Under the pieces are notes generated by a model. It saw only the letters and a list, made by a program, of their open reading frames with translations, did not search any database and was not told the origin of the DNA. This document shows positions 6,320 through 51,109 of a stretch of 64,000 nt of DNA, in pieces. The stretch spans positions 2,006 to 66,005 of the forward strand of contig CAZYQT010000005.1 of assembly GCA_964650255.1 (NCBI GenBank), written 5' to 3'. The position numbers and the translations under genes are program-made. This stretch comes from an uncultured Candidatus Saccharibacteria bacterium. GTDB lineage: Bacteria > Patescibacteriota > Doudnabacteria > UBA920. Position 1 is the first letter of the stretch, and the number at the start of each line of letters is the position of its first letter.

Positions 6320-6330
6320 GATATCAATAT

Positions 6331-6360
6331 AACAAAAAACACCTCGGATTACGAGGTGTT
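6331..6360 (-). terminator. Rho-independent terminator after clpC
   Basis: Minus-strand hairpin AACACCTCG-taatc-CGAGGTGTT followed by TTTTTTGTT. Confidence 0.65.
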
Positions 6361-6372
6361 TTTATATGATGC

Positions 6373-11627: not shown

Positions 11628-11698
11628 ATTGTTTTATGAATTAATGCTTTTCCTTATTATACCAGGAAACCCATTTATTGGTAATGTATACTATAGAT

Positions 11699-12262: not shown

Positions 12263-12544
12263 ATGTTAAGCCGAGAAGAAGTCATCAAAATCAGCCAAAT
12301 GGCTCGCATAAAGCTTCAAGAAGATGAGATCGAAAAGTTCCAAAAGGACCTCTCGTCTGTTTTGGATTATGTAGATGAATTAAAAGCGGTTAATACTGAT
12401 GGGCTAGAGATTGTTTCTAGTGTGACCGGTTTGGAAAATGTGGAGCGCGAAGATAAGGCCGTATTGATTGACTACCAGGAAGAAATTTTGGCCAACGCGC
12501 CGGAACGCAGGGATCGATACTATAAAGTGAAATCAATTTTATAA
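12263..12544 (+). CDS. gatC: Asp/Glu-tRNA amidotransferase subunit C
   Basis: A 93 aa GatC-like sequence whose stop overlaps the gatA start (TAATG). Confidence 0.85.
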   Translation: MLSREEVIKISQMARIKLQEDEIEKFQKDLSSVLDYVDELKAVNTDGLEIVSSVTGLENVEREDKAVLIDYQEEILANAPERRDRYYKVKSIL

Positions 12545-15683: not shown

Positions 15684-15684
15684 T

Positions 15685-17208
15685 ATGGAACTAAAAGGCT
15701 ACAAACCAGTTATAGGACTCGAGATCCACGTGCAGCTTGCTACTAAGAGCAAGATGTTTTCGAGTGCGCCGTGCGATCCCGAAGAAAAAATTCCGAACAC
15801 AAATATAGACGAGGTCGCAACTGGCGAGCCCGGCTCTTTGCCGGTGATTAACAAAGAAGCAGTGCGTTTGGGCGTTATGGTGGGCATGGCTTTGAATTGC
15901 GAGATTCCGGAATATTCTAAGTTTGACCGCAAACATTATTTTTACCCTGATCTTCCAAAGGGGTATCAGATTTCGCAATTGGATCATCCTGTTGCGGCAA
16001 AGGGCTATGTAGATATTTCTGTTCCTGCGGATCCGAATCGTGAAGGAAACAAAGATGCTTACACAAAACGCATTAGAATTACGCGCGCGCATTTGGAAGA
16101 AGATGCCGGGAAGAACACACACCCAGAGGGTTTGCCTTATTCTTTAGTAGATTTGAATCGCGCCGGCTGTCCGCTTTTGGAAATTGTAACTGAGCCTGAT
16201 GTCGAAACAGCAGAAGAAGCGCGCATCTTTTTGCAGGAGCTGCAGAGAATTGTTCGTTATGTGGGAGCATCAAGTGCAGATATGGAAAAAGGCACGATGC
16301 GCTGCGAGCCAAACATTTCGGTGCGTAAGCCTGGTGAAGAAAGTTTGCCGAAATATAAAGTTGAAGTGAAGAACATCAATAGCTTTAAGTTTGCCGAAGC
16401 TGCAATTAATTACGAAATTCCGCGGCACATTGAAATGCTCGAAGCAGGTGAGATGCCAAAGCAGGTAACCATGGGCTGGAATGAAAAGTACAACAAGACT
16501 GTTGAACAGCGCGAAAAGGGTGAAGCTAATGATTATCGTTACATGCCAGAACCAGATTTACCAGAACTCCATTTTACAGAAGAGTTTAAAGCAAAGCTTC
16601 GTGCCGAACTACCAGAATTGCCAGCACAAAAGCGCGTGCGTTTTAAAGCTGAGTTCGGCTTGGATGATGCAGGAATTGAAACTTTGCTCAACTGGAAGCA
16701 AATGAATGAGTACTTTGAGGAAGTAGTAAGTGAAATTGATGCATGGATGCTCACTGATGGAAATTCTGACAACCAAGACTTGCGTGCGAAGTTAATTAAA
16801 CTTGCTGCTAATTGGTGTGTGCAAGATTTTTCCGCATTGCTTAATGCAGAGCTTGCTAATCCACTTGAATCACGAGTTAGTGCGGAAAATATGGCAGAAT
16901 TAGTTAAGCTAATCGACAACGGAAAAATTTCTGGGTCTGCTGCCAAACAAGTGTTTAAAGTAATGTACGAAAAAGGCGGTGAGCCAGATATGATTGTCGA
17001 AGACTTGGGTTTGGTGCAGGTGAGTGATGCTGGTGCGATTGAATCAGCTATCGACGAAGTTATTGCAGCTAACGAAAAAGCTGTTGCAGATTTTAAAGCT
17101 GGCGAACAAAAATCATTTGGCTTCTTGGTCGGCCAAGTTATGGCGCACATGAAAGGCAAGGCCAATCCGCAGGTTGTAAATGAGTTGTTGAAGAAAAAAC
17201 TAAGTTAA
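15685..17208 (+). CDS. gatB: Glu/Asp-tRNA amidotransferase subunit B
   Basis: MELKGYKPVIGLEIHVQL...GxxxVRKPGEE... core and the C-terminal GatB/YqeY domain. The track start at 15655 is a TTG extension; the ATG is at 15685. Confidence 0.9.
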   Translation: MELKGYKPVIGLEIHVQLATKSKMFSSAPCDPEEKIPNTNIDEVATGEPGSLPVINKEAVRLGVMVGMALNCEIPEYSKFDRKHYFYPDLPKGYQISQLDHPVAAKGYVDISVPADPNREGNKDAYTKRIRITRAHLEEDAGKNTHPEGLPYSLVDLNRAGCPLLEIVTEPDVETAEEARIFLQELQRIVRYVGASSADMEKGTMRCEPNISVRKPGEESLPKYKVEVKNINSFKFAEAAINYEIPRHIEMLEAGEMPKQVTMGWNEKYNKTVEQREKGEANDYRYMPEPDLPELHFTEEFKAKLRAELPELPAQKRVRFKAEFGLDDAGIETLLNWKQMNEYFEEVVSEIDAWMLTDGNSDNQDLRAKLIKLAANWCVQDFSALLNAELANPLESRVSAENMAELVKLIDNGKISGSAAKQVFKVMYEKGGEPDMIVEDLGLVQVSDAGAIESAIDEVIAANEKAVADFKAGEQKSFGFLVGQVMAHMKGKANPQVVNELLKKKLS

Positions 17209-37835: not shown

Positions 37836-39440
37836 TTAGTTTACTTTATATTCTGTTACGTAAACCCATGTTCCCACATAGGGTCTGACTTCAGCAAAAC
37901 TTTTTTGAACTACTTCAGTCCAGTTTTTTGGTGTAGTGGGTTTGCTGCCGCCGAAGCCGTTGGTCCACAATAGCCACACAGTGTCGCCGTGTCGTGTTGA
38001 ATCGGAAAAATTAAGGACTAGATCATCATCAGTGAGGATGGCAGTGCCAGCATAGTGAGGTAGGTCATGTGTGAGGTGGCCATCAGTAAAAAGTAGCGGC
38101 TTCACAGAAGTTTCGTTGTAGTATTTGTAGTTGAAAAATTCAAAACTACTACCCACATAAATTTTATGTTGCGGTTCAACATTGGCGGTAAGGTATGCGC
38201 TGGCTGCGGCCATTCCCGGTTTAGTTTCTAATTGGAGCTTATCCCAATAATTCCAAACTGAGTAAAGATTTAGTAAAACCAGAACCAGGCTAAGTAAAGT
38301 AGCTAGTTGTTTGATTTTAAATTTACTTAGGAATAACGCCACTAAAATAGAATAGTACGCGCTGCAGAATATGAAATAGCGCACTAAATAGACTGAGCTG
38401 TTGTTGCCTTGGAGTTTGGCAATTATATAAAAGAGGATTGCGCCGCCGAACGGAGCTAGGAATGCCAGTATCGCCAGCCATTTTTCGGTTTCTTGCAACT
38501 TACGAATTACTTGAACAATAATTAGTAAGGTTAACATGGTGACAAATATCCAAAGAGGATTTGGGATTTGCCAGGATCCAATTAGCGGAAGTTTGGTTAT
38601 AGAATTGGGTAATCGAATGAGTAATTCCCATAATGTTGATGGAATACTCCATTCATCCATTGGCGGGATCCAATATCCAGCGCCGACTTGCTTGAATTGG
38701 AACAAAAAGACTTTCAACCAAGGAATAAATAGTATACCAATTCCCAGACCCGACAGCACCATCCAGCCGTATCGTTTAAATTCACCTTTGAAGTTAATAA
38801 TGCAATAAATGATTGCGTATATTCCTAGGGCTGCAACAGTGAACAACAAATAATAGTGAGTGTAAGTTAGAATGGCACTACACAATGTGAAGACCGCATA
38901 GTAAATTAGGAATCGTTTTTTTAACTTTGTCTTCAGTACTATATTGGTTTTACTGGCGTAGTAAGCAGTTTGATTGCGCAGAGCAGCACATAGAGCTAAT
39001 GCGGCAATCACTGCAAAGAACGCACCCATGGTGTACATGCGGGCTTCAGTGACATACTGCACTTGAAAAGGATTCACTGCAACGAACAGCGCAGCCCACA
39101 AAGCGGCACCTCGGTTGTTAAAGGCATATTTTACTAGATAATAAACGCCAATGACTGTGCCAACTCCGAAAAGCACGGACATGCCTCGCAGTGAAAACAA
39201 AGAGTTGCCAAAAATATAAGACCAAATACGCAAGAAAATATAATACATTGGTGGATGAACATCCAAACCAATTCGGTGCATCATTTCGCCCCATGGGTAT
39301 TTAATCAGCAACGCAGAAAAAGCTTCATCGTGCCAAAGCGATATTGAAGTCAAATGCCACAAACGCAGTACGAGTCCTAGGGCAGCGATGCAAATTAAAG
39401 CGAAATTGGTGCTAACTAGACTTTTGGCTTTTTGAATCAT
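37836..39440 (-). CDS. GT-C family glycosyltransferase (PMT/ArnT-like, GT39/GT83), 534 aa
   Basis: First-loop DE motif (LWHDEAFSA), ~12 TM helices and a C-terminal soluble domain. Confidence 0.7.
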   Translation of the reverse strand: MIQKAKSLVSTNFALICIAALGLVLRLWHLTSISLWHDEAFSALLIKYPWGEMMHRIGLDVHPPMYYIFLRIWSYIFGNSLFSLRGMSVLFGVGTVIGVYYLVKYAFNNRGAALWAALFVAVNPFQVQYVTEARMYTMGAFFAVIAALALCAALRNQTAYYASKTNIVLKTKLKKRFLIYYAVFTLCSAILTYTHYYLLFTVAALGIYAIIYCIINFKGEFKRYGWMVLSGLGIGILFIPWLKVFLFQFKQVGAGYWIPPMDEWSIPSTLWELLIRLPNSITKLPLIGSWQIPNPLWIFVTMLTLLIIVQVIRKLQETEKWLAILAFLAPFGGAILFYIIAKLQGNNSSVYLVRYFIFCSAYYSILVALFLSKFKIKQLATLLSLVLVLLNLYSVWNYWDKLQLETKPGMAAASAYLTANVEPQHKIYVGSSFEFFNYKYYNETSVKPLLFTDGHLTHDLPHYAGTAILTDDDLVLNFSDSTRHGDTVWLLWTNGFGGSKPTTPKNWTEVVQKSFAEVRPYVGTWVYVTEYKVN

Positions 39441-39442
39441 AA

Positions 39443-41107
39443 TTATTGAACTGTGTATACAGCTAATACTGCTTGGTTAAATTTATTACGCCGTTCTAAA
39501 GTTAGTTTGGCTTCAGGGTGATACTGTTTGAATTTTTTAATATCAAAAATACTAGATTGCGTGAACACGAGCCGGTCTCCTGGCTTGAGATTCTTGAGTT
39601 CCCATGAGTTTTCGGGATCCACCTGTTGGTATGGGTTGCCTTTATCGCTTGTAAAATAATCCACGGTTTGAACAGAGAACTTATCAAGTATAAGGAAAGT
39701 ATTATTTTTGTTGCCCGTGTTGTTTAGATAATCACTGACATTGGTTAAGTCAGACCGGAACGAGTAGAAGTTTTCTGGGCTATTAGCAGCAAAAATAAAG
39801 TAGAGGATGTAGGTTTGTAAGATGAGTGCCGCAATAAATACAATCGTCTTTGCATGAAAGGCAAAAGATAGTAGATTTTTTTGCCACCCCTGAAGATAAG
39901 GCCAGTACTTATTCACCACCCGCGAAGTCCATTCGACAACCCACATTAAACCCACGCTGGACATAATAAATACTACTGGGATAGTACCAATCGCACGCAA
40001 GCCGTGAGGGATACCTTCGGCAGTGGTGATTACAGGGATGAGCATGGCCCAAAACCACCCAGCGAGCAAAAAGTATTTCCAGTCGAGTTTATTTTTTATT
40101 GGAGTGAAGACATACCGGGCCGCTAGGGCAGTGGCGCCGATCAAACCCAAGGCAAAAAATGGAGCAATAATAATAGATAGGAATGCTTCACCAGAAATGT
40201 TGTGGCGCCAATTTAGATCGCCTCCCCAGAAGTAGGCGCGCATACTAGTCCAGAACACTTCACCTAATGTGCCTATTAGATTGCCGTGGTTAAGCGCAGG
40301 GCTAAATACGGATACTTGTCCGCTGCGACCAATAAACGATCCGGCATGTGTCCAGAAGTAATAAGCTATCCATGAGATAAAGACTAAAAAGCTGGCAATT
40401 AGGCCAATAAATGGTCCGAAAAACTTTTTAATATTTTGGAAGCGCGGAGACTTAATGATATCAACAGCCAATGGCCACAAAATTGCAACAGCAACAAGCG
40501 GTACCATTATCCTGTAGGCAATGTAGGTATAAAAACCTAGAGCAAAGGTTGCACCGGTAAGCACCGCCCACATGTAACGTTTGGCTTTGGTGGCGGCTTG
40601 AAAAGCCATTAGGCCAAAAAAGAAAGTGAATGTAGTAAATAAAGGAATTAAATTGGCGCGAAAAGCTGTGCGAGACAAGACTACATGCCAACTCGAAACC
40701 GCCATAAAGAATGATGCCCAAAGGGCAAGATTAGTTGCGCGACTAGTAATGGCATTGGGTTTGTCTCCATCGCGACTGCGGCCAAAGATTTTAAACAAAG
40801 CTCGAGCAACTAAGAAACAACCCAGCACCGCAATTACACCAACTAGAGCTGAAACAATATGATGCTGCCACGGACCTTTGCCAAACAGCTCCACACTGCC
40901 CCATAGCATGTAAAAGAACAAAGCCTCTCGGCCATTGCCGCGCTCGTAAAATGGTTGCAACTGTCCTTGTTGCATCAAGTTAATATCAAGGCCATTAGCG
41001 GCTTCGTCTGGAAACAATCCGCCAGGCATCGCCATAATCTGGTAATACCTAAAGAAGATTGCCAGGGCCATTATGCCGACTAGGAGCCATTTTTGTTTTG
41101 GTGTCAT
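39443..41107 (-). CDS. GT-C family glycosyltransferase (PMT/ArnT-like), second tandem copy
   Basis: GGLFPDEAANG motif, 12 or more TM helices. The track start at 41263 adds a non-hydrophobic extension. I prefer MTPKQKW (41107) or MNSW (41143). Confidence 0.65.
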   Translation of the reverse strand: MTPKQKWLLVGIMALAIFFRYYQIMAMPGGLFPDEAANGLDINLMQQGQLQPFYERGNGREALFFYMLWGSVELFGKGPWQHHIVSALVGVIAVLGCFLVARALFKIFGRSRDGDKPNAITSRATNLALWASFFMAVSSWHVVLSRTAFRANLIPLFTTFTFFFGLMAFQAATKAKRYMWAVLTGATFALGFYTYIAYRIMVPLVAVAILWPLAVDIIKSPRFQNIKKFFGPFIGLIASFLVFISWIAYYFWTHAGSFIGRSGQVSVFSPALNHGNLIGTLGEVFWTSMRAYFWGGDLNWRHNISGEAFLSIIIAPFFALGLIGATALAARYVFTPIKNKLDWKYFLLAGWFWAMLIPVITTAEGIPHGLRAIGTIPVVFIMSSVGLMWVVEWTSRVVNKYWPYLQGWQKNLLSFAFHAKTIVFIAALILQTYILYFIFAANSPENFYSFRSDLTNVSDYLNNTGNKNNTFLILDKFSVQTVDYFTSDKGNPYQQVDPENSWELKNLKPGDRLVFTQSSIFDIKKFKQYHPEAKLTLERRNKFNQAVLAVYTVQ

Positions 41108-41141
41108 ATTTGGTATAATTGGTACTGCTAACCAAGAATTC

Positions 41142-41471
41142 ATGCCATACGATAAGCACACACAAAAAGCCTGGGGCATTGCAATTGTCCTTTTTATTAT
41201 AACACTGGTTGCTGTGTATTTCAAAATGCGCAACGCTCCAGACACTGTAGCTTTACGATACAATATTATCGTTGGCGTTAATCAGATCGGGAGTAAGTAC
41301 GAGTTGTTAAAAATTCCTGCCACTGGCTTGTTAATCGGCATTGTTAATTACTTACTCATTCGATTGCAGAAATTTGATAAATCATTTTTGCCATTTTTGG
41401 CAGCTTTGACCACAGTCATGGTTAATGCCTTTTTACTCATCGCAGTTTTATTTTTATTCCGCGTTAGCTAA
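41142..41471 (+). CDS. Hypothetical small membrane protein
   Basis: Three TM helices. A plus-strand TGgTATAAT at 41111-41119 supports a divergent transcript running into the GT2 gene at 41481. The start is uncertain. Confidence 0.35.
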   Translation: MPYDKHTQKAWGIAIVLFIITLVAVYFKMRNAPDTVALRYNIIVGVNQIGSKYELLKIPATGLLIGIVNYLLIRLQKFDKSFLPFLAALTTVMVNAFLLIAVLFLFRVS

Positions 41472-41480
41472 AGTTTTAAT

Positions 41481-43157
41481 ATGTTCCGCACTCGCACACG
41501 CAGAGAACGATTTTGGGAAATTTTACCTGGCCTTTCCTTTTGGACGGTTTTTTTGGGTTCTATAGTCTTGTCTTTCGTTAAACCAGTTTGGGCAGCGGTG
41601 TTTATTGTTTGTTTTGATTTGTACTGGCTACTAAAGGCTATGAACACTTCGATTCATTTAATTTCGAGCTATCGCAAATTTCGAGTGTACGTAAAAATTG
41701 ATTGGCTTTATTTGATTAGCAAGCTGCAAAATCGGTCTGAATTAATTGAGCATATGGAAGAACTCGGGGTCAAGGCCGTCAAGTCGCTAGAAAAAAGGTT
41801 TTATAAAACCGAGGTAGAGAAGCTGCGCACAATGCCAGATAATGGCGTAATTAAGCGCCCATATACAGACTTCGTGCATTTAATATTAGTACCGTTTGTG
41901 GATGAATCCGAGGAAGTTCTTACATCAACTATCGGAGCTTTGGCCAGTGCTCAGTACCCCCATGATCGAATGATTGTTGTTTTGGCTTCGGAAGAACGGG
42001 CTGGGGCAGAGGCACAAAAAGTTGGCCAAGCCATGCTTGCAAAGTTTAAAGATAAATTTGCACACATGTTTTTAACTGTGCATCCAGATGGCTTGGAGGG
42101 GGAAATAAAAGGGAAGAGCGCCAATGCCAGTTATGCGGTTTCTTCGTTGCTGCCAAAGTTAGAAGAACTTGGCATTGCAGAAGAAGAGGTATTAATTTCT
42201 AATTTAGACAGCGATACTATTGTGCACCCGCAGTACTTTGCGCGCGTGATGTATGCGTTTTTAACTTCTGAAAAACCATACCGCCGTAGTTACCAGCCAA
42301 TTGCGATTTACAATAATAATATTTGGGATAGCCCAGCATTTATTCGCGTGGTGTCCATTTCGAATTCGTTTTGGCAGTTTACTGAAAGTTCCCGACCCGA
42401 CAGGCTTCGCACGTTCGCTTCGCATACAATGACCCTTAAGGCCCTGCGTGAGGTTGGGTTCTGGAAAAAAGATATCATCAATGAAGATGGATTTATTTAT
42501 TGGCAGTGTTACTTGCACTATAAAGGTGATTACGAAGTGGTCCCGTTGTTTATTCCGGTTTCGCTAGATACTTGTCTGGCTGACACTTTTTGGCAAACGC
42601 TGATTAATCAATACAAACAGAAAAAGCGTTGGGCATACAATGTGGAATATTATCCGCATTTGGTGCCAGCCATGTTAAAGAGTAAAGCGCCATTTTGGGA
42701 TCGGATGTATAAGTTGTGGCAATACGTTGAAGGTGATTTTAACTGGGCTACGGCTAGTTTGTTGATTACGGTTTTGGGTTGGCTTCCTTTGTTTATTGGC
42801 GGGCCGGAGTTTAAGGAAACAGTGATTGCTTATAACTTACCGCATGCTACCCGCACTCTAATGACGATTGCAACAGGATTTTTAATTTTCAGTGTGTACA
42901 TCAATTTAATTTTATTGCCACCGCGGCCAAAGAAATACAGTGTGTGGCGTAGTGTGATGATGTATTTGCAGTGGGTACTGGTGCCGATTGTTTCTGTGGT
43001 GTTCGGAAGTTTGCCAGCCATTGAAGCGCAAACTAGATTGATGATGGGTTGGTATTTAGAATTCTTCGTAACGCCAAAGGCCCGCAAAGGCGAAGTAACA
43101 GCTTCTACAATGCGCGAAATGCAAGCCGCAGAAAGCTCAGCAGGAGGGCAAAAATGA
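41481..43157 (+). CDS. Membrane glycosyltransferase family 2, processive-type (cellulose/chitin/hyaluronan-synthase-like)
   Basis: DxD (NLDSDT), Q(Q/R)xRW-like (QKKRW) and multiple C-terminal TM helices. Confidence 0.7.
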   Translation: MFRTRTRRERFWEILPGLSFWTVFLGSIVLSFVKPVWAAVFIVCFDLYWLLKAMNTSIHLISSYRKFRVYVKIDWLYLISKLQNRSELIEHMEELGVKAVKSLEKRFYKTEVEKLRTMPDNGVIKRPYTDFVHLILVPFVDESEEVLTSTIGALASAQYPHDRMIVVLASEERAGAEAQKVGQAMLAKFKDKFAHMFLTVHPDGLEGEIKGKSANASYAVSSLLPKLEELGIAEEEVLISNLDSDTIVHPQYFARVMYAFLTSEKPYRRSYQPIAIYNNNIWDSPAFIRVVSISNSFWQFTESSRPDRLRTFASHTMTLKALREVGFWKKDIINEDGFIYWQCYLHYKGDYEVVPLFIPVSLDTCLADTFWQTLINQYKQKKRWAYNVEYYPHLVPAMLKSKAPFWDRMYKLWQYVEGDFNWATASLLITVLGWLPLFIGGPEFKETVIAYNLPHATRTLMTIATGFLIFSVYINLILLPPRPKKYSVWRSVMMYLQWVLVPIVSVVFGSLPAIEAQTRLMMGWYLEFFVTPKARKGEVTASTMREMQAAESSAGGQK

Positions 43158-44212
43158 GCTACTTCGGCTTCGGCTTGTTCGCGTTTATAATGGCGGTGTT
43201 AATTACGCCAATCGTACGTTTTTTGGCGGAGCGAGTCGGGGCAGTTGATGTGCCTAGGCCGCCGCGTAATTTGCATACTCACACAGTTGCTAAGCTGGGT
43301 GGTTTGGCAATCTTTCTGAGTGTGGCTCTTGGTATGTTACTTTATGTGCACGCTGGAGCAATTGATCCTCTCATTGTGCCGTTTCGATTTGTATGGGCTT
43401 TGCTCTTGGGTGGGGCAGTGTTAATGGTCGGTGGTTTTTTAGATGACAAATACGAACTTCCGCCTTACATCTTGTGGATTTTTCCAACCATCTCTGCGTT
43501 GATAGTTGTTTTTTCTGGAATTGGAGTTGGAATTAAATTTATTAGCAACCCATTTGGCGCGCCGATTAATTTAGACTTCGCTTTACTTGGTGTGCCTGCA
43601 TCTGGTATTTTTATTTTTTTGTGGATGCTGGGCATGATGTTTACCACAAAATTTTTGGATGGTTTGGATGGACTTGTAGCTGGCATTGGTCTAATCGCTG
43701 GTCTGACTTTGTTTGCTCTGTCGTTAACCGATAGTGTGCAGCAACCAATTACTGCGAGTCTAGCAATTATTTTGGTTGGGGCGTTGGCTGGTTATTTAGT
43801 GTATGCGTTTCATCCAGCATCAATATTTCTCGGTGAGGGCGGCAGCACTTTAATTGGTTTTATTTTGGGAGTGCTCTCAGTAATTTTGGGCGGGAAGATT
43901 GCCACGGCTTTGCTGGTTATGGGGATTCCAATTTTAGATGTCGCTTGGGTAATTTTACAAAGACTGTGGTCGCGAAAAAGTCCGTTTCGTGGCGATCGAT
44001 TGCACATTCATTTTAAAATGATAGATTTAGGATTTTCCCAAAGACAGATTGCGTTGCTGCTATATGCACTGTCTGCAGGATTTGGTTTTACAGCGGTGTT
44101 TTTGCAAAGCATGGGTAAGCTTGTGGCCTTGGGAATTCTCTTTGCTATTATGGGCGTAATGGTATTGGGAGTGTTGTATGCGTACAAACGGAAACAATCC
44201 ATTAACGATTGA
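43154..44212 (+). CDS. Polyprenyl-phosphate N-acetylhexosamine-1-phosphate transferase (WecA/MraY family)
   Basis: Ten or eleven TM helices, DDxxE (GGFLDDKYELP) and DGLDGL motifs. The start overlaps the upstream stop (ATGA). Confidence 0.8.
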   Translation: MSYFGFGLFAFIMAVLITPIVRFLAERVGAVDVPRPPRNLHTHTVAKLGGLAIFLSVALGMLLYVHAGAIDPLIVPFRFVWALLLGGAVLMVGGFLDDKYELPPYILWIFPTISALIVVFSGIGVGIKFISNPFGAPINLDFALLGVPASGIFIFLWMLGMMFTTKFLDGLDGLVAGIGLIAGLTLFALSLTDSVQQPITASLAIILVGALAGYLVYAFHPASIFLGEGGSTLIGFILGVLSVILGGKIATALLVMGIPILDVAWVILQRLWSRKSPFRGDRLHIHFKMIDLGFSQRQIALLLYALSAGFGFTAVFLQSMGKLVALGILFAIMGVMVLGVLYAYKRKQSIND

Positions 44213-44270
44213 CTTTGAGTTAAAATTCTGTTAGTATTCCACAGTTACAAAATTCCCTGGAGGTCAAATA

Positions 44271-44669
44271 GTGAAAACTCAAAGAGCAAAGAGAAGTGCA
44301 GATGAGCTTCTACAGGAGCTTGCCATTTTGATGCATGATAAGAAATATGATTCAGTGAGTGACTTGTTAGAGACTTTTCCCGAGTTGATTAACAATCTCA
44401 CACCACGATGCGAGGTCCCATTGGTTATGGCCATTAAATGTTGGGATCCAAAATTGGTAGGGATCTGTATGAAGCACGGTGCTAACCCGACAGAGAAGCA
44501 CCATTGTTCAAAGGACAAAAAGGATAAAATCCCGATTTTAATTACCTTTGAGCAGTTTTGTAAAAGGATCCACAAACTCAAGACCAGGCAAGCTTGGGAT
44601 AGACATTTCAGGATTTACTCCCAGATGATTCTTGAGATGACAGAGGTGGCTCCATTTTCAAAGGGTTAA
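44271..44669 (+). CDS. Hypothetical protein (132 aa) with an ankyrin-repeat-like segment
   Basis: GTG start with a strong SD GGAGGT 7 nt upstream. Contains VPLVMAIKCWDPKLVGICMKHGANP. Confidence 0.45.
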   Translation: MKTQRAKRSADELLQELAILMHDKKYDSVSDLLETFPELINNLTPRCEVPLVMAIKCWDPKLVGICMKHGANPTEKHHCSKDKKDKIPILITFEQFCKRIHKLKTRQAWDRHFRIYSQMILEMTEVAPFSKG

Positions 44670-44679
44670 GCTTTAGTTC

Positions 44680-44708
44680 TTGACAAAATACCGCATTTTC
44701 GATAAGAT
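44680..44708 (+). promoter_or_regulatory. Sigma-70-type promoter for rplU
   Basis: TTGACA, a 17-nt spacer, then TAAGAT. Same architecture as the greA promoter. Confidence 0.45.
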
Positions 44709-44744
44709 TATGTGGTATTTTAATTTATAAGAATCAATATATCT

Positions 44745-45053
44745 ATGTCATTTGCAGTTATTGCCACCGGCGGAAAACAGTATTTGGTTGCCAAAGGTGA
44801 AAAAATTCAAGTTGAAAAGCTAGAAGGTAAAGCCGGGGACAAAATCACTTTTGACCAGGTTCTCGCCACTATTTCAGATAAAGACTACGTTTTGGGTAAG
44901 CCTGCCATCAAAGATGCAGCCGTTGAAGCCAAGATTCTAAAGCAGGGCCGCGGTAAGAAAATTGATGTCTTAAAGTACAAGCCAAAGAGTAAGTACCGCC
45001 GCAAGATTGGCCACCGCCAAGCTTACACTGAAGTCGAGATCACGAAAATTTAA
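44745..45053 (+). CDS. rplU: 50S ribosomal protein L21
   Basis: MSFAVIATGGKQYLVAKGEKI...YKPKSKYRRKIGHRQAYTEV. Confidence 0.9.
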   Translation: MSFAVIATGGKQYLVAKGEKIQVEKLEGKAGDKITFDQVLATISDKDYVLGKPAIKDAAVEAKILKQGRGKKIDVLKYKPKSKYRRKIGHRQAYTEVEITKI

Positions 45054-45065
45054 TTTGATCTTTTA

Positions 45066-45095
45066 AAAGCCACCCAAATGGGTGGTTTTTTGTTT
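45066..45095 (+). terminator. Rho-independent terminator after rplU
   Basis: AAAGCCACCC-aaat-GGGTGGTTTT followed by TTGTTTT. Confidence 0.65.
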
Positions 45096-45107
45096 TCCTG
45101 CGTGGGA

Positions 45108-45136
45108 TTGACTTGTGTAAGTAAATATGGTATTCT
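45108..45136 (+). promoter_or_regulatory. Candidate promoter of the GC-rich single-gene cassette
   Basis: TTGACT, a 17-nt spacer, then TATTCT. A strong SD AAGGAG lies 8 nt before the ATG at 45200. Confidence 0.3.
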
Positions 45137-45199
45137 TTTAAATCTGAAAACAAGCTTACTTGTTTTCGTGATAATAAAAAATACTAAGGAGACAATATT

Positions 45200-45886
45200 A
45201 TGTCAGTTGACACAGTTACGGAATGGCAGCGATGGCTTAGGCAGCAGCGCGAAAAAGGGAATATGCGTTTGTTCGATCATAATCTGAATCTGGAGCTGAA
45301 CGCTTCCGATGATGATGACGGCCGATCCAAATGGGGCGTCGGTAATTCTGATTACACAGGTCATCAGGCCTATCGACGCGATGATTCAGGTTTTTTCGAG
45401 GTCGAGTATGTCCAAGTTACTACTGACGGCAGAGAGGTCGGCGGCTGGTTCCAACCTTTAATCCGAGATTTGCCAGAAGGCGGAATCGCGGTTTTGGGAA
45501 GAGATAACGACTCTGAGCTCTTTTTGGTCAGTATCCGCGAGGAGCCCGGCAATCCGCCAGATAAAAATTATATTCTTTTAGGGCCATCTGCTCAGATGAG
45601 TTTGTCCAATGCTCGAAAAGATCACGGCGGTAACGCGCCGCCGCGGCACGAACTGATCAAAACCGCAATTTTGTTTGATCAGGTTCAGGACGGAGGACGT
45701 TTTAGGAACAAGGTCAATCAGATCGGGTTCACGGTGATCCCCTCGATACGGGATATAACGCTCAGTGATAAGGAGAGAATTTTCACCCGGGCAGAGTTGG
45801 TCGAGGCTATTCGTGCAGGGGAGTGCAACTCTCACCTCGTCGAGATCTTCTCGCGCGTTTCCGCTGACCTGCTACGTCTTCAATAA
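45200..45886 (+). CDS. Hypothetical protein (228 aa), GC-rich. Tentatively an NDP-hexose 2,3-dehydratase-like (EvaA/TylX3 family) single Nudix-fold domain.
   Basis: Own promoter, SD and terminator, and higher GC than its neighbours. Motifs RDDSGFFEVEYV, WFQPLI, GIAVLGR, EPGNPPDK and LGPSAQMSLSNARKDHGG recall (from memory, unverified) the 2,3-dehydratase half-domain. Confidence 0.5.
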   Translation: MSVDTVTEWQRWLRQQREKGNMRLFDHNLNLELNASDDDDGRSKWGVGNSDYTGHQAYRRDDSGFFEVEYVQVTTDGREVGGWFQPLIRDLPEGGIAVLGRDNDSELFLVSIREEPGNPPDKNYILLGPSAQMSLSNARKDHGGNAPPRHELIKTAILFDQVQDGGRFRNKVNQIGFTVIPSIRDITLSDKERIFTRAELVEAIRAGECNSHLVEIFSRVSADLLRLQ

Positions 45887-45915
45887 ATGCTTAGCAAGTT
45901 CGGTCAACCTATTTG

Positions 45916-45956
45916 GGCACAAAGTCAATCAAACGACTTTGTGCCTTCTTTTTTTA
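45916..45956 (+). terminator. Rho-independent terminator
   Basis: GGCACAAAGTC-aatcaaac-GACTTTGTGCC followed by TTCTTTTTTTAT. Confidence 0.65.
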
Positions 45957-45986
45957 TATCCAAAAAATTGCTATAATCAAGCCAAT

Positions 45987-46988
45987 ATGGCTAAGGTAAC
46001 GTTAATTCAGGTGGTTTGGAACAGCCGCAAATTCATTGAGCGGGTGTTTGCTGCAGCGCTTAATCAAACCTATAAAGATATTGAAATGGTTGCTGTAATT
46101 TCTGGCAATGAAGATGGCGGCAAAGAACTTATTCAAGAGAAATTTCCACAAGTAAAAATTATTGACCCAGGTTTTAATATTGGTTTTTCCCGCGGGCATA
46201 ATGAGTACTTTGAAAAAAGTGATTCCGAGTTTTTTCAACTCGTAAATCCAGATTTAATTATGGCGCCAACTTACGTGGAAGAAATGTTGAAGGCCTTTGA
46301 AGATCCCGCTGTAGGCGCAGCAACTGGAAAACTTTTGCGTTACGACTTTGACAACAACAAACCTTTAGATATTATAGATACCACTGGCGTGGTGTTTAGT
46401 AAAAGTGGTCGGGGCCGCGACCGTGGTCAGCACGAAGTAGACAAAGGTCAATACGACAGCTTAACAAAAGTTTTAGCAGTATCTGGTGCGGGACCAATGT
46501 ATCGAAAATCAGCGCTAGAAGCAGTTAAGACAATTGGCGCAGATGGCCGCTCGCAATATTTTGATGAAGACTTTCATTCCTACTGGGAAGATGTTGATCT
46601 TGGTATGCGCATGACGAACGCAGGGCTGAAGTGTGTTTTCGTGCCCAAAGCTGTGGCTTGGCATGGACGTGCAGCAGGATCGAGTAAGGGTGGGTATAAA
46701 AAGTTATTTTCTTACATTAAGTTCCATAATAAAATTAGTCCTTGGGTGAGGCAGCTAAATTACCGTAACCACATTTTCTTATTTTTAAAAAATACTCCTC
46801 GATTTTACCTAAAATTCTTTGCGCGAGAGATCTTCATGTTCGGCTATATTTTATTGTTTGAAACTGCTACATTAAAGGTATTGCCCCAGCTTTTTAAGCT
46901 CCTGCCGTCAATGTGGCAAAAACGCAAAGCCATTCAAAAATCCCGAAAAATCCCCGTAGAAGAATTTGAATCAATGCTCATTAATTAA
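45987..46988 (+). CDS. Glycosyltransferase family 2 (rhamnosyltransferase/WcaA-like)
   Basis: GT-A N-terminus (VTLIQVVWNSRKFIERVFAAALNQTY) and a DxD region. The track ORF begins upstream inside the preceding gene. I place the start at MAKV after TTGCTATAAT (45968-45977). Confidence 0.7.
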   Translation: MAKVTLIQVVWNSRKFIERVFAAALNQTYKDIEMVAVISGNEDGGKELIQEKFPQVKIIDPGFNIGFSRGHNEYFEKSDSEFFQLVNPDLIMAPTYVEEMLKAFEDPAVGAATGKLLRYDFDNNKPLDIIDTTGVVFSKSGRGRDRGQHEVDKGQYDSLTKVLAVSGAGPMYRKSALEAVKTIGADGRSQYFDEDFHSYWEDVDLGMRMTNAGLKCVFVPKAVAWHGRAAGSSKGGYKKLFSYIKFHNKISPWVRQLNYRNHIFLFLKNTPRFYLKFFAREIFMFGYILLFETATLKVLPQLFKLLPSMWQKRKAIQKSRKIPVEEFESMLIN

Positions 46989-47010
46989 TATTTATAAATA
47001 ATTCACACCA

Positions 47011-47901
47011 ATGGATTTAAGCATAATCATCGTTCCATATAAATGTAAGGACAACGTCGACATCACACTCGAGGCGGTTTTTAATTCTAAAACTCAATAC
47101 TCTTACGAAGTAATTATTGTTGATAACGATTCTAAAGACGGCACCGTGGAAATGATCCGCGAAAAGTATTTGAGCAACCCAGAAATTGCCGCTAAAACAA
47201 CCTTGATTGAGAATACTAACGAAGGCTTTGGCAAGGGAAATAATCGCGGTATTAAAATTGCGAAAGGAGAATATGTATTACTACTTAATCCGGACACTAA
47301 GGTTGCAGAAGACAACTTTGAAGTCATGATCAATTTCTTGAAGGCACATCCAAATGTTGGTATGGCAGGATGCAAACTTATTAAGGGCGATGGGGAAGTA
47401 GATTTGGCTTGCCGCCGTAGTGAACCAGACCCACGCGTGTCTTTTTACCGCCTAAGTGGTTTGCAATACATTTTTCCAAAAACCTTTGGTGGTTACAATG
47501 TTTTAGACAAAGGCTTTGACGAGGAAACTGAGATTGATTGTATCTCTGGTGCTTATATGATGATGACTAAAGATTGCTTACGCCAAGTTACTGGCTTCGA
47601 CGAAAGCTTCTTTATGTACGGCGAAGATATCGATCTGTGTCGCAGGGTTCGCCAAGCTGGATATAAAGTTTGGTATTATCCTAAAACTTATTCCTATCAC
47701 TTTAAGGGTCAGTCATCTAAGAAAGCATCAAAGTTTTCTTTGTTCCACTTCCATAACGCCATGTGGATTTATTATAAAAAGTACTATTACCACAAGAGCA
47801 GCTTCATTATGAATGGTTTAGTTTATTTCGGAATTTGGGCACGTTACTATTTAAAGTTGGTTATTAATCATTTCAAAACCGATAAAGCGATTAGTAAATA
47901 A
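47011..47901 (+). CDS. Glycosyltransferase family 2
   Basis: IIIVPYKCKDN...VIIVDNDSKDGT... plus a DxD-like region, GT2_3-like. Confidence 0.8.
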   Translation: MDLSIIIVPYKCKDNVDITLEAVFNSKTQYSYEVIIVDNDSKDGTVEMIREKYLSNPEIAAKTTLIENTNEGFGKGNNRGIKIAKGEYVLLLNPDTKVAEDNFEVMINFLKAHPNVGMAGCKLIKGDGEVDLACRRSEPDPRVSFYRLSGLQYIFPKTFGGYNVLDKGFDEETEIDCISGAYMMMTKDCLRQVTGFDESFFMYGEDIDLCRRVRQAGYKVWYYPKTYSYHFKGQSSKKASKFSLFHFHNAMWIYYKKYYYHKSSFIMNGLVYFGIWARYYLKLVINHFKTDKAISK

Positions 47902-47915
47902 TATTTTGAGTTTTT

Positions 47916-47948
47916 AAAAACCGCGTTTACCACGCGGTTTTAATTTTA
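47916..47948. terminator. Bidirectional terminator between GT2 and the convergent NUDIX gene
   Basis: AAACCGCG-tttacca-CGCGGTTT flanked by A-runs and T-runs. The NUDIX stop lies inside the stem. Confidence 0.55.
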
Positions 47949-48382
47949 TCCCAATGTTTACGGAGTAGGTCGCCATGTTCAGGAACAATATTTTCAGGGA
48001 TTTCTTTGAATACCTGGATGGCTGAAGAGTCTTCATCATGTTTCAGGGTCCCAGAAACTACATCGCACATGAATGTCGCACTAATTGTATAACCGTAGCC
48101 TCGTTCTTTTTCCTCTTCCGGAAAATACATATGATCCAAAAATGATAAGTTGTTAACTTCTAATCCAGTTTCTTCTAGCGCTGTTCGTATTACTGCTGCC
48201 TCAAGAGTTTCTTTAAAGAACACCATGCTTCCAGGAAAATGCCAAAGCCCTTCCCAGCCACCATTTTTGCGGAGCAATAAAACAACTCCGTCCTTACCGC
48301 GAATGACTATATCTACAGTCAGTCGGGTTATTTTTGAGTAGATAGCTTTGTACTCCTCGAACGGAATTGGTTTTTGGCCCAT
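47927..48382 (-). CDS. NUDIX hydrolase (sugar-nucleotide/ADP-ribose type)
   Basis: Nudix box GSMVFFKETLEAAVIRTALEETGLEV (G-x6-E-x7-RT-ALEETGL). Confidence 0.7.
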   Translation of the reverse strand: MGQKPIPFEEYKAIYSKITRLTVDIVIRGKDGVVLLLRKNGGWEGLWHFPGSMVFFKETLEAAVIRTALEETGLEVNNLSFLDHMYFPEEEKERGYGYTISATFMCDVVSGTLKHDEDSSAIQVFKEIPENIVPEHGDLLRKHWDKIKTAW

Positions 48383-48391
48383 AGTATATTG

Positions 48392-49150
48392 TTAAACTCC
48401 AAAAGTAGTTTGAGTACTGACTGGTTTTGGCTTGTTTGCTTGTTCACGCCTCCAGACATTTGCCTCATGATAAGATTCTATTGTACCAGCGTCAATCCAG
48501 GCCCCTTTCATAATCTCAGCTTTTAAGATGCCCTTTTCGCGGTACCAGTTATTTAAATCAGTAATTTCTAGTTCACCGCGAGCAGATGGTCTTTGTCCCT
48601 TAGCTGCCCCAACAACCTGATTGTCGTAAATGTAGATTCCAGTTTGGGCATACGGTGATTTGGGATGCATAGGTTTTTCTTCAATATCCAAAACTTTATT
48701 ATCTTTGTCTAAGATTACGTTACCCAATCGACTGCGCTCCTCGACCGGCACTTCTTTTACAAAAATTGTTGCCCCAGATTGAAAGTTTGTAATTGCATCG
48801 GTAATGGAATCTTCAAAAATATTATCACCTAAAATAAGAGTGACGTTATCGCCATCGTCCAAAAAGTTTTCGCCTATAATAAAGGCTTGCGCCAGGCCAT
48901 CAGGCTTGTCCTGAATTTCATAGGTAAATTTTGCACCAAAATCTTTACCAGAGCCTAATACGCGCATGTAGTCGCCGCAATGATCCGGAGCAACAATAAT
49001 TAAAATTTCTCTAACGCCGGCTTCGACCAATTTTTCAATTGGATAGAAGATCATTGGCTTATCATAAATTGGCAACAACTGCTTCGATGTTACCTTGGTT
49101 AGGGGATATAGCCTTGTTCCTAAGCCTCCGGAAAGAATGATGCCTTTCAT
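48392..49150 (-). CDS. rmlA: Glucose-1-phosphate thymidylyltransferase, short form
   Basis: GGLGTRLYPLT nucleotide-binding motif and RmlA-like core. 252 aa. Confidence 0.85.
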   Translation of the reverse strand: MKGIILSGGLGTRLYPLTKVTSKQLLPIYDKPMIFYPIEKLVEAGVREILIIVAPDHCGDYMRVLGSGKDFGAKFTYEIQDKPDGLAQAFIIGENFLDDGDNVTLILGDNIFEDSITDAITNFQSGATIFVKEVPVEERSRLGNVILDKDNKVLDIEEKPMHPKSPYAQTGIYIYDNQVVGAAKGQRPSARGELEITDLNNWYREKGILKAEIMKGAWIDAGTIESYHEANVWRREQANKPKPVSTQTTFGV

Positions 49151-49157
49151 TTATGTA

Positions 49158-50066
49158 TTATTTCACTAGACTTAATTTGTAATCTGTTTCTTGTTGCGTT
49201 TCTTCAAGAATTTCTTGGGCACGTTCGAGATTGGCCTTGAATTCTGGGAGTAGGCGACGCAATCGGGATTCGATTTCTTCCAACTCAATACCGAGCGCTT
49301 TTAATTTTGATGTATTTAGCACGCAGTCAACGCGCGTGGCAAGAGTCATGGCATTCAACTCATCTTTGGAGATTATGCTAATTTCCATATCGGGTTTTAC
49401 CAATTCTTTTAACAGCTGTGCCAAGCGGAATGGGGTCATAATTCCTGGGTTAGTAATATTGTAGAGTCCTTCTGCTCGAAGACCAATTAATTTATCCGTT
49501 ACTTCTATTAAGTCTTCAACAATCGTCATCGAATTAGCTGTATCAATGAATTTGTTGTAGGTTAAAAGCTTTGTTAAAGCATTTCGTTTATTTGCTTTGG
49601 CACTCATAAGCTGTCGGCCGCGAAGTAGGAGTACTTTTAGCCCTTGGCGTGCAGCGCGTTCCATAAGCAAATTTTCTGCCCAGACTTTTGTCCAAGAGTA
49701 AAAGGCCAAAGGATGAGCTGGGTCATCCTCAGTGTGGACAATATCTGCTGACTGACTTTCTTGCACGCAGCCGCTTGAGAGGTGCACTAGATAAACACCT
49801 GCTTCTTGGCAAGCTCGCCCAATTGTATCAGAGCCTAAAGTATTAACATCGAAGCACTCTAATTGATTCTGCTCACACCAGTCCAAGTTGGTTTTACCAG
49901 CGCAATTAATGACAACGTCTGGTTGAAAGTCTGCAATGGCGCTACTAACTTGATCAAAATTGCGTATGTCCACGTCTTGATCGATGGCCACTTCCTCACC
50001 TTTTTCTAGGTAGTATTCTTCATAGGCTTGGCCAAGTTGCCCTCGGCCGAATATTAGTACTTTCAT
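49158..50066 (-). CDS. rmlD: dTDP-4-dehydrorhamnose reductase-like (RmlD family SDR / 4-ketoreductase)
   Basis: Rossmann N-terminus (KVLIFGRGQLG) and YxxxK (YSWTK). RmlD-like length. Confidence 0.7.
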   Translation of the reverse strand: MKVLIFGRGQLGQAYEEYYLEKGEEVAIDQDVDIRNFDQVSSAIADFQPDVVINCAGKTNLDWCEQNQLECFDVNTLGSDTIGRACQEAGVYLVHLSSGCVQESQSADIVHTEDDPAHPLAFYSWTKVWAENLLMERAARQGLKVLLLRGRQLMSAKANKRNALTKLLTYNKFIDTANSMTIVEDLIEVTDKLIGLRAEGLYNITNPGIMTPFRLAQLLKELVKPDMEISIISKDELNAMTLATRVDCVLNTSKLKALGIELEEIESRLRRLLPEFKANLERAQEILEETQQETDYKLSLVK

Positions 50067-50092
50067 ATTTTTGTAGTTAATTTGTTGATGGG

Positions 50093-51109
50093 TTATTTTT
50101 TGTTCACTACTGCTTCGCCTCGCTTGGCGTACAGTGCCTCACTTTCTTCAGCCAGTGCCTGCCAAATGTGTTGGTTGGCAATATACCATTCAATAGTTTG
50201 TTTTAGCCATTCTTCAAAGTTATGCAATGGCTCCCAACCGAGTTCGTTTTTTATTACACTCCAGTCAACGTCATACTTTTGATCATGTCCAGGCCGGTCA
50301 GTTACATATTCAATGCGACTCTCTGGCAAGTCCATTAGTTTTAAAATTAATTTGGCAACATCTTCATTTTTAATTCCTTCAGTCATCCCGCCAACAGTGT
50401 AAGTTCGGCCTGGCTCACCTTTCAATAGAATTAATTCAATTGCTCGGCAATGATCATTAACATGTAACCAATCACGAACTTGATTGCCTGGTGTATAAAC
50501 GCGAATGTTGTTGCCGTTCAGAAGGCGGGCGATAGAGCGCGGGATAAACTTTTCTGGATACATCCGCGGACCAAAGTTATTACTGGCATTACTGATGGTA
50601 ACCGGTAAGCCATAAGTTTTGTGGTAAGCTCTCACCATGTGATCACTTCCGGCTTTGCTGGCCGAATAGGGGCTATTGGGTTTGTAGGTTGTATCCGCGG
50701 TAAACTTCCAATCTTCTTCTAAAGGGATATGGCCGAAAACTTCATCAGTAGAAATATGGTGGAATCTTTTTATGCCCAGTTCGCGAGCCACTTCTAACAA
50801 CACATGAGTTCCTAATACGTTTGTGCGGGTAAAAAGAAATGGATCATGAATGCTTCGGTCGACATGGCTTTCTGCGGCGAAGTGTACTACGCAATCGCAG
50901 CCGGACATGGCTCGGCGAACAACGTCTGGATCTGTAATATCACCTTCAATAAAAGTGATGGAGTCGTTGTGTGGGTCAAGGTTAGCTCTGTTGCCAGCAT
51001 AAGTAAGTTTGTCTAAAACAACGATTTCGTCGTTGGGATAGTGTTTGCGCCAGTGATGCACAAAATTAGAGCCAATAAAGCCGGCACCGCCAGTAATCAG
51101 TAATTTCAT
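50093..51109 (-). CDS. rmlB: dTDP-glucose 4,6-dehydratase
   Basis: TGGAGFIGSN, catalytic YSASK and RmlB-like overall sequence. Confidence 0.9.
   Translation of the reverse strand: MKLLITGGAGFIGSNFVHHWRKHYPNDEIVVLDKLTYAGNRANLDPHNDSITFIEGDITDPDVVRRAMSGCDCVVHFAAESHVDRSIHDPFLFTRTNVLGTHVLLEVARELGIKRFHHISTDEVFGHIPLEEDWKFTADTTYKPNSPYSASKAGSDHMVRAYHKTYGLPVTISNASNNFGPRMYPEKFIPRSIARLLNGNNIRVYTPGNQVRDWLHVNDHCRAIELILLKGEPGRTYTVGGMTEGIKNEDVAKLILKLMDLPESRIEYVTDRPGHDQKYDVDWSVIKNELGWEPLHNFEEWLKQTIEWYIANQHIWQALAEESEALYAKRGEAVVNKK

Follow-up and report, generated by a model that had tools for sequence, protein, structure and literature searches.

A stand-alone single-repeat relative of EvaA (PF03559) in a glycan locus of an uncultured bacterium

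Can one half of an EvaA-type enzyme work on its own? The question is raised by a gene at positions 45200 to 45886 of a 64,000-nucleotide stretch of DNA from an uncultured Candidatus Saccharibacteria bacterium (contig CAZYQT010000005.1); the whole of this stretch is called the window below. The gene follows rplU and encodes a 228-amino-acid protein. The initial annotation read it as a GC-rich, self-contained cassette, possibly for half of an EvaA/TylX3-type 2,3-dehydratase of nucleotide-linked hexoses. Our reading is that it encodes a stand-alone single-repeat EvaA/PF03559 protein that would act, as a homodimer, on dTDP-4-keto-6-deoxy-D-glucose (dTDP, deoxythymidine diphosphate), likeliest by 2,3-dehydration. 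We give this reading a probability of roughly 0.5.

Does the protein belong to the EvaA family at all? Searched with the PF03559 hidden Markov model, it gave a significant match (E = 8.6e-19; 68.2 bits against a cutoff of 25) over a single stretch, residues 58 to 208. Its only meaningful sequence match in the PDB was EvaA (4j7g, E = 2.6e-12), and it aligned with both EvaA halves. An AlphaFold2 model built from a 52-sequence alignment reached a predicted local distance difference test score of 93 and a predicted template modelling score of 0.88; the four best Foldseek matches obtained with this model were EvaA chains, and on the model the protein has the EvaA-like Nudix-type fold. A profile of the protein's own family, run against EvaA (E = 5e-63), matched residues 37 to 234 (112.7 bits) and 262 to 448 (100.9 bits), and both EvaA halves covered nearly the whole profile, N-terminal helix included. 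Because the profile fits each half nearly end to end, we conclude that the protein amounts to exactly one EvaA repeat. The proposed resemblance to an EvaA/TylX3-type half was thus borne out by the PF03559 score and by the family profile alike. The tandem pair of repeats typical of the family (about 450 to 490 amino acids, with pockets A and B) is not there: the 228 residues hold one PF03559 stretch, and the 64-kb window contains no second PF03559-like segment. The protein has no match to PF00293, the Nudix hydrolase family, even at E<=10, and the Nudix box GX5EX7REUXEEXGU is absent, in strict or loose form, from it and from all 52 members of its clade. It also matched no NCBIfam model and nothing in PADLOC or PHROGs.

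Might it nevertheless be a fragment of a longer enzyme? Word-indexed homologue searches returned only 2 and 7 proteins, all of them carrying a precomputed PF03559 annotation, and an exhaustive HMMER search over 1.84 billion representative proteins was used; it gave 731 matches. Among the best 38 of these, 36 are 197 to 270 amino acids long with one matched stretch, and two-repeat proteins (410 to 500 amino acids) appear in the list only below about 100 bits. The short proteins among the top 150 matches (n = 58, 197 to 270 amino acids) all begin with Met and share two helices, W-x-x-W-L-x-x-Q-R at the N terminus and G-x-C-N-x-H-L at the C terminus. As these 58 complete, Met-initiated homologues form a clade of their own, the window protein is no fragment. 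We built a neighbour-joining tree from 52 single-repeat proteins (S) and from both halves, N-terminal (N) and C-terminal (C), of 81 two-repeat proteins; the sequences fall into three separate groups, with 52/52 S, 81/81 N and 80/81 C sequences in place. Identity is 0.29 to 0.31 between N and C, 0.26 between N and S and 0.24 between C and S, so that the two halves are nearer to each other than to S.

All members of the single-repeat clade come from metagenome assemblies, and none is named in any source. No locus with a single-repeat PF03559 gene was found in a viral contig collection, and one short locus was found in a metagenome contig collection; two pattern-limited scans of a genome contig collection found none, which is no proof of absence. 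Our literature search, which left many subscription-journal papers outside its reach, found no relevant description of a single-domain form or of a link to candidate phyla. The clade of about 200 to 230 amino acids is apparently undescribed.

Has the clade kept what the family needs for catalysis? In EvaA, Glu139 and Glu190 of pocket A are essential, and pocket B is regarded as an inactive relic of gene duplication (PMC8987622). The key residues of the window protein are E115 (equivalent to EvaA E139), Q163 (equivalent to EvaA E190), D164, H142, K171 and the pair R78-E79. E115, in the EPGN motif, is invariant in S (51/51) and in the N-halves (81/81) and is present in 77/81 C-halves. D164, one residue after position 163, is conserved in 49/51 S proteins. 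Of 12 residues invariant in N- and C-halves alike, the clade keeps 11. It further keeps four of five signatures found only in C-halves (R78, E79, V80 and G166; at 164, the fifth, Glu is conservatively replaced by Asp) together with H142, G144, K171 and N118, which are found only in N-halves. Descent from one half alone is less parsimonious, since residues lost from that half would have to be regained. The S clade probably descends, to judge from these residues, from an unduplicated ancestor, after which N and C lost complementary residues, and not from a broken two-domain gene. The nearness of N and C to each other in identity points the same way; this pre-duplication reading is an inference, and the tree beside it has no outgroup root.

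How is the gene set up for expression? The cassette consists of the following features.

44745-45053: rplU, the upstream neighbour of the 228-amino-acid open reading frame.
45065-45090 (+): terminator-like hairpin and T-run closing rplU, with 11 pairs and a loop of 4, then TGTTTTCC.
45108-45136 (+): promoter-like site, TTGACT (45108-45113), a 17-nucleotide spacer and TATTCT (45131-45136).
45186-45191 (+): Shine-Dalgarno sequence AAGGAG, 8 nucleotides 5' of the ATG, read from the sequence.
45200-45886 (+): open reading frame for the single-repeat EvaA-like (PF03559) protein, 228 amino acids.
45915-45946 (+): terminator-like hairpin and T-run closing the cassette, with 12 pairs.

All the elements of the cassette that had been described, from the rplU terminator to the closing hairpin, were found in place, as were all the peptide segments that had been quoted from the translation. 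The promoter-like site matches consensus at 9 of 12 positions and has a TG two bases 5' of its -10 hexamer. Promoter and terminators alike are called from consensus matches only, and promoter-like sites are common in the cassette region (11 observed, 3.8 expected). By its predicted promoter and terminators, the gene is a transcription unit of its own, which the hairpin at 45065-45090 would shield from transcription upstream. The copy of the gene in a related locus, L014, likewise has a promoter-like site (TTGACA, 17 nucleotides, GATAAT) and a terminator of its own. The upstream intergenic regions of the PF03559 gene do not align among loci, and we found no conserved regulatory DNA there. L006, a contig that comes from a separate sample, matches at 99.4% identity over 1848 bp; hence, the arrangement is not an accident of assembly.

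What would the protein find to act on? Around the cassette the window carries a glycan locus, arranged in the order GT2_3, GT4, a small open reading frame, rplU, the PF03559 gene, two GT2 genes and then, on the minus strand, Nudix, rmlA, RmlD-like and rmlB genes, followed by a sortase gene.

43154-44212 (+): GT4-family (WecA/MraY-like) polyprenyl-phosphate sugar-phosphate transferase (PF00953, 87 bits), 63% identical to its L014 counterpart and likely the initiating enzyme of the locus.
45987-46988 (+): GT2 glycosyltransferase, 333 amino acids (PF00535), 73% identical to its L014 counterpart.
47011-47901 (+): second GT2 glycosyltransferase, 296 amino acids, 75% identical to its L014 counterpart.
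47927-48382 (-): Nudix hydrolase (PF00293, 56.5 bits), abutting rmlA.
48392-49150 (-): RmlA-like glucose-1-phosphate thymidylyltransferase, short form, 252 amino acids (PF00483, 194.6 bits).
49158-50066 (-): RmlD-like short-chain dehydrogenase/reductase, homologue of bifunctional 3,5-epimerase/4-reductases (NRS/ER, L780 type).
50093-51109 (-): RmlB, dTDP-glucose 4,6-dehydratase (TIGR01181, 425 bits against a cutoff of 365.1).

The GT2 genes and the rmlA/rmlB module thus lie beside the cassette, as the initial annotation had it; a GT2 gene directly follows the PF03559 gene in both the window and L014, and RmlB, bona fide by its score and the source of the 4-keto intermediate, is encoded 4.2 kb from the PF03559 gene. 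The RmlA-like protein scored 273.9 bits with TIGR01207, under the cutoff of 360.65. The Nudix hydrolase weakly matches a PADLOC candidate defence family, PDC-S07 (E = 6e-8); its gene is not at the same position in L011 or L014, and in L008 a Nudix gene lies about 5 kb away from the PF03559 gene.

The initial annotation had pointed out that the module has no rmlC. It was indeed absent: six-frame phmmer searches and Pfam scans of all open reading frames of >=100 amino acids found no RmlC or FdtA-like cupin in the 64 kb, and the same set of reading frames held no sugar aminotransferase. The label "rmlD" for 49158-50066 did not survive. The protein scored 99.6 bits with the RmlD equivalog model (cutoff 224), compared with 224.6 for the L014 RmlD. 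With the true RmlDs of L011 and L014 it shares 25% identity, but with the L007 and L009 reductases 33 to 34% (E about 1e-47). Its best PDB matches were 4qqr ("3,5-epimerase/4-reductase", 105.7 bits) and 7jid ("UDP-L-rhamnose synthase", 87.5 bits), with bacterial RmlDs at 56.7 bits or below. As controls, the L009 and L015 reductases gave 148 and 167 bits to 4qqr, and the L014 RmlD matched RmlDs only. Cys108 and Lys175 of L780 are catalytic, and that enzyme accepts a dTDP-linked substrate (PMC9614988); the window protein at 49158-50066 has a Cys and a Lys, both conserved, at the aligned positions. Because a homologue of this epimerase-reductase (ER) type would cover the RmlC and RmlD steps, RmlA, RmlB and 49158-50066 would make up a complete L-rhamnose route. 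On these predicted functions the rhamnose pathway is complete without RmlC, and the missing rmlC has an ordinary explanation and is no sign of an odd pathway. Bacteria normally need two enzymes for the 3,5-epimerase/4-reductase step (PMC9614988), against which a bifunctional homologue of the plant and giant-virus type in a bacterium is notable. ER-type reductases also occur in L007, L009 and L015.

Is this neighbourhood peculiar to the window? We read ten further loci with clade members, on contigs that reach different distances. These gene sets were found:

L011 (P0003): rplU, PF03559 gene, rmlA, rmlD, RmlB-RmlC fusion, GT2, GT2.
L014 (P0007): the window's gene set and a stand-alone rmlC.
L007, L008/L009 and L015/L016 (P0152, P0151 and P0012): RmlB, reductase, PF03559 gene, nucleotidyltransferase and GT2 genes.
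L001 and L018 (P0002 and P0031): FdtA-like cupin, RmlD-like gene, one other gene, PF03559 gene.

An RmlD-like or ER-type reductase lies no more than two genes away in 9 of the 10 related loci with readable flanks. RmlB-like genes adjoin the PF03559 gene in L007, L008/L009, L011, L014 and L015, and RmlB, nucleotidyltransferase and GT2 genes are present wherever a related contig extends far enough. The PF03559 gene always accompanies a complete rhamnose pathway, either of the RmlC and RmlD type or of the ER type, and its functional tie to dTDP-6-deoxyhexose metabolism is strong and repeated. Two of these loci encode fusions. In L011, a 564-amino-acid RmlB-RmlC protein (4273-5967, -) joins a 4,6-dehydratase to a C-terminal PF00908 epimerase domain; it shares 67% identity with the window RmlB over its first 334 residues and 65% with the L014 RmlC in its C-terminal part. 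In L001, a 706-amino-acid protein (4344-6464, +) encoded directly downstream of the PF03559 gene combines a GT4/GT1-type glycosyltransferase with a C-terminal RmlD-like short-chain dehydrogenase/reductase.

The gene also stands out by composition. It had been called clearly more GC-rich than its surroundings, and the profile agrees: its GC of 0.505 compares with a mean of 0.418 for the 58 other window genes (z = 3.4), and its GC at third codon positions (GC3) of 0.533 with a mean of 0.393 (z = 3.3), the next-highest gene reaching 0.474. It ranks first of 59 genes in both measures, and none of the 687-bp sliding windows exceeds it. The rise keeps within the coding region: GC goes up at the start codon and comes down just past the stop. 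Across loci, GC3 of the PF03559 gene and the mean of its neighbours are as follows.

Window: 0.53, neighbours 0.41.
L011: 0.47, neighbours 0.35.
L014: 0.57, neighbours 0.32.
L018: 0.41, neighbours 0.22.
L001: 0.89, neighbours 0.54.
L008: 0.85, neighbours 0.52.
L015: 0.77, neighbours 0.38.
L017: 0.78, neighbours 0.50.
L012: 0.94, neighbours 0.52.
L007: 0.80, neighbours 0.81.

The PF03559 gene has the top GC3 of its neighbourhood in 9 of these 10 loci, the exception being the uniformly GC-rich L007. The mean excess is +0.24, with a one-sided Wilcoxon p of 0.002 that is indicative only, as the loci are phylogenetically non-independent. The excess of 0.12 to 0.43 over neighbours recurs in hosts of 33 to 50% GC and at protein identities down to about 30%.

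What could keep one gene so GC-rich? An overlapping antisense gene was rejected: only the GC-rich copies have an open antisense frame, which follows from their avoidance of TTA, CTA and TCA codons, and in the window, L011, L014 and L018 that frame is interrupted. Selection on mRNA structure found no support as a general cause, as synonymous shuffling gave z = +0.25 for the window gene and about 0 for L008 and L015. The lower-GC copies in L011 (1707-2330), L014 (8001-8636) and L018 (5302-5946) do fold extra-stably, with z of -3.6, -2.7 and -2.2, respectively. A mobile cassette with flanking repeats was rejected as well, the repeats around the gene being short and at chance level.

The protein also diverges faster than most of its neighbours, as seen in amino acid identities between syntenic loci.

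Window and L011: PF03559 protein 44%, flanking proteins 60 to 86%.
Window and L014: PF03559 protein 37%, flanking proteins 45 to 77%.
L011 and L014: PF03559 protein 41%, flanking proteins 45 to 67%.
L007 and L009: PF03559 protein 31%, flanking proteins 52 to 73%.
L015 and L007: PF03559 protein 28%, flanking proteins 39 to 69%.

It was the most diverged protein in 4 of the 5 comparisons. When the window is set against L011 and L014 it comes second-lowest, behind a reductase pair at 25%, and between L011 and L014 it is the lowest. That reductase pair is non-orthologous, since in the window the ER type stands in for the RmlD type. The PF03559 gene tree is star-like and agrees only in part with locus synteny. 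Persistent GC-richness and fast divergence indicate that the history of the gene is partly decoupled from that of its neighbours. The pattern does not fit one old transfer with later amelioration, because the flanks of the window, L011 and L014 are 58 to 86% identical and synonymous sites should therefore be saturated. Two explanations remain for the GC pattern: recurrent in-place replacement from GC-richer relatives, or selection or mutational bias acting on the nucleotide composition of the gene. Relatedness also varies along the locus (41481-51109). The window rplU product is 86% identical to that of L011 and 63% to that of L014, and the products of the two GT2 genes and rmlA are nearer to L014 (73 to 77%) than to L011 (60 to 69%). 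This discordant relatedness suggests recombination or exchange of segments among related lineages.

How, then, might a single repeat work? A symmetric homodimer would recreate the pseudo-dimer of EvaA N- and C-halves and would hold two equivalent composite pockets. The neighbouring RmlA and RmlB would make dTDP-4-keto-6-deoxy-D-glucose, and each pocket would bind it. E115 would then abstract H-3 to give an enolate. Loss of the 2-OH would branch a 2-deoxy route from the rhamnose pathway; after reduction, the product of this route would serve the adjacent GT2 enzymes in building a surface glycan. Judged by conserved residues and gene context, 2,3-dehydratase chemistry is plausible for the protein. 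The fate of the enolate is the least certain step; 2,3-dehydration is its most likely outcome, at about one chance in two.

How well does 2,3-dehydration fit the active site and the neighbours? Several observations weigh against it. Position 163, where 79 of 81 N-halves have the E190 glutamate, is Gln in the window and Gln, Lys, Met or Glu in 27, 8, 4 and 3 S proteins, respectively. Three N-half invariants are altered in the clade (Q90 to E, E92 to G and Q126 to L), so that the acid/amide set reads E90/G92/Q163/D164 where N-halves have Q90/E92/E163/Q164. As far as the alignment goes, the active site is rewired relative to that of EvaA, with two acidic residues kept at different positions. Canonical 2,6-dideoxy pathways need a 3-ketoreductase, since the 3,4-diketo product is unstable. 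No 3-ketoreductase of the Gfo/Idh/MocA or aldo-keto-reductase kind was found in the 64-kb window, where every open reading frame of >=100 amino acids was scanned, or among the annotated genes of the ten related loci. Of the arguments from context, this one weighs most against a textbook 2,3-dehydratase role, although the reductase could be encoded elsewhere in the genome. One related contig, L017 (P0010, 8 kb), has no rml genes. Of the name "dehydratase" given initially, the family and fold resemblance stands; the enzyme label is not established, with E190 unconserved in the clade and no reductase partner found in the window or annotated in the related loci. The same observations would suit an enzyme with the same fold, substrate and first step that uses the enolate differently, as an epimerase, keto-isomerase or other tailoring enzyme, and so yields an unusual 6-deoxyhexose and not a 2-deoxy sugar. 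The lost E190 equivalent, the rearranged acid/amide constellation and the missing 3-ketoreductase all favor it, and the only reductases nearby are 4-reductases of the RmlD or ER type. We still think it rather unlikely: such chemistry is without precedent in PF03559, D164 beside position 163 could take over the role of E190, and epimerase capacity is already present in every locus examined in enough depth, as RmlC in L011 and L014, as the ER-type enzyme in the window, L007, L009 and L015, and as the FdtA-like cupin in L001 and L018.

Could the protein instead do without a partner? The 3,4-diketo product decays spontaneously to dTDP and maltol. A 2,3-dehydratase lacking its reductase might thus act as a relief valve that recycles dTDP from surplus dTDP-4-keto-6-deoxyglucose or, in a variant, the protein might be a non-catalytic binder of dTDP-sugars or a regulator. 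The missing 3-ketoreductase, a rhamnose pathway complete without the PF03559 gene and the gene's separate transcription (from predicted signals) are in keeping with this, and pocket B of EvaA binds dTDP-sugar without catalysis (PMC8987622). Both versions are speculative and without precedent, and we judge them improbable: the clade keeps H142, G144, K171 and N118, which the vestigial C-half pocket has lost, arguing for a working pocket, and the conserved GT2 adjacency suggests that a product is used. That the protein replaces RmlC as a non-orthologous 3,5-epimerase is hardly credible. The window, L007, L008/L009 and L015 do have rmlA, rmlB, reductase and PF03559 genes and no rmlC, but a stand-alone rmlC (L014) and the RmlB-RmlC fusion (L011) coexist with the PF03559 gene. 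We rejected this candidate because the loci without rmlC carry an ER-type reductase with the catalytic Cys and Lys conserved, and no epimerase is missing. Might the GC-rich cassette be simply a recently acquired foreign gene, carried over by horizontal transfer from a GC-rich donor and without an integrated role? Its top rank in GC and GC3, its own predicted promoter and terminators, its fast divergence in the syntenic comparisons and its partly incongruent tree all speak for this. We nonetheless hold it to be quite improbable. The same neighbourhood surrounds the gene in L011 and L014, whose flanks have diverged far enough to make its presence old; the family-invariant residues are intact; flanking repeats and phage or defence-system matches are lacking; and the GC step ends where the reading frame ends. 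Recurrent replacement by relatives is possible, and we count it as an explanation of the GC pattern, not as a sign that function is lacking.

The reading preferred here, a homodimer acting on the RmlB product, can be taken one step further, and there we are tentative. The S proteins may be the surviving unduplicated form of the family, working as symmetric homodimers with two complete composite pockets; with the altered acid/amide set (E90, Q163, D164), they might catalyse a reaction other than 2,3-dehydration on dTDP-4-keto-6-deoxyhexose and supply small-genome uncultivated bacteria with an undescribed surface-glycan sugar, and the GC3 excess would reflect gene-specific selection or recurrent replacement and not one transfer. 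If this is true, the complementary residue losses in the two EvaA halves record a division of work after duplication. A natural half-size relative that carries the signatures of both halves makes the duplication proposed for EvaA directly testable (PMC8987622).

Other features of the window touch the locus less closely. In the gap between the GT4 gene and rplU lies a 132-amino-acid open reading frame (44271-44669, +) with no Pfam, PADLOC or PHROGs match; small reading frames at the same position in L011 (108 amino acids) and L014 (114 amino acids) have no detectable similarity to it. Two large membrane proteins of 534 and 606 amino acids, encoded side by side at 37836-41263 (-) immediately upstream of the glycan locus, have PMT_2-type glycosyltransferase domains, the second with a match below the Pfam cutoff. 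The gatCAB operon is normally compact; here, a 541-amino-acid reading frame without a Pfam match (14058-15683, +) lies between a GatA-like amidase gene (12544-14052) and gatB (15655-17208). A 178-amino-acid CarS-like (CDP-archaeol synthase) protein (11678-12214, +; PF01864, 67.8 bits) is encoded in a genome that otherwise looks bacterial. The window's gene content includes a sortase, ComEC and type IV pilins and, taken with the small conserved glycan loci of the relatives, gives the impression of a small-genome uncultivated bacterium; its RNA genes are three tRNAs only.

What does the locus teach? A PF03559 match in a protein that lacks one essential Glu and whose reductase partner is absent marks a limit of automated annotation, and any 2,6-dideoxy sugar pathway predicted for these organisms may be wrong. 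The surface glycan for which the locus carries glycosyltransferases likely matters for cell-cell interaction. A GC3 excess that is gene-specific and repeated across genomes is an evolutionary puzzle in its own right.

How does the protein compare with known systems? It would share with RmlC the same intermediate and proton abstraction beside the 4-keto group, but RmlC has the unrelated cupin fold, coexists with the PF03559 protein in L011 and L014 and has its role in the window covered by the ER-type reductase. Nudix hydrolases such as YffH of Escherichia coli (GDP-mannose; 3O52/3O61) and the ADP-ribose pyrophosphatases (1VIU, 1G0S, 1MK1) are of similar single-domain size. Domain-swapped Nudix sugar-nucleotide hydrolases act as homodimers, the arrangement proposed here. 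Identity to YffH and the ADP-ribose pyrophosphatases is only 10 to 15%, however, and the protein lacks their PF00293 match and Nudix box; as no Nudix-box-like motif occurs in any of the 52 clade members, pyrophosphate hydrolysis is unlikely. The closest comparison is with EvaA of Amycolatopsis orientalis (PDB 4J7G/4J7H) and the other two-domain enzymes TylX3, Gra-orf27, OleV and SpnO, with which it shares PF03559. Unlike these enzymes of two repeats and about 450 to 490 amino acids, it has one repeat and falls in a separate clade. Unlike their N-halves, the clade has Gln, Lys or Met with a following Asp in place of E190, and Arg in place of His at position 60; the window protein also keeps R78-E79-V80, which in EvaA is confined to the C-half. 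Its gene lies not in an antibiotic gene cluster but among genes for a cell-surface glycan, in a low-GC bacterium that is uncultivated, with no 3-ketoreductase partner in the window. In common with the EvaA-type enzymes, the protein retains the EPGN motif with its catalytic Glu (E139 of EvaA, E115 here), W83-x-Q85-P86, Q132, N137, H142-G-G144, K171 and the GGRF motif, and, as in EvaA-type systems, its gene lies near that of a 4,6-dehydratase that makes the canonical substrate.

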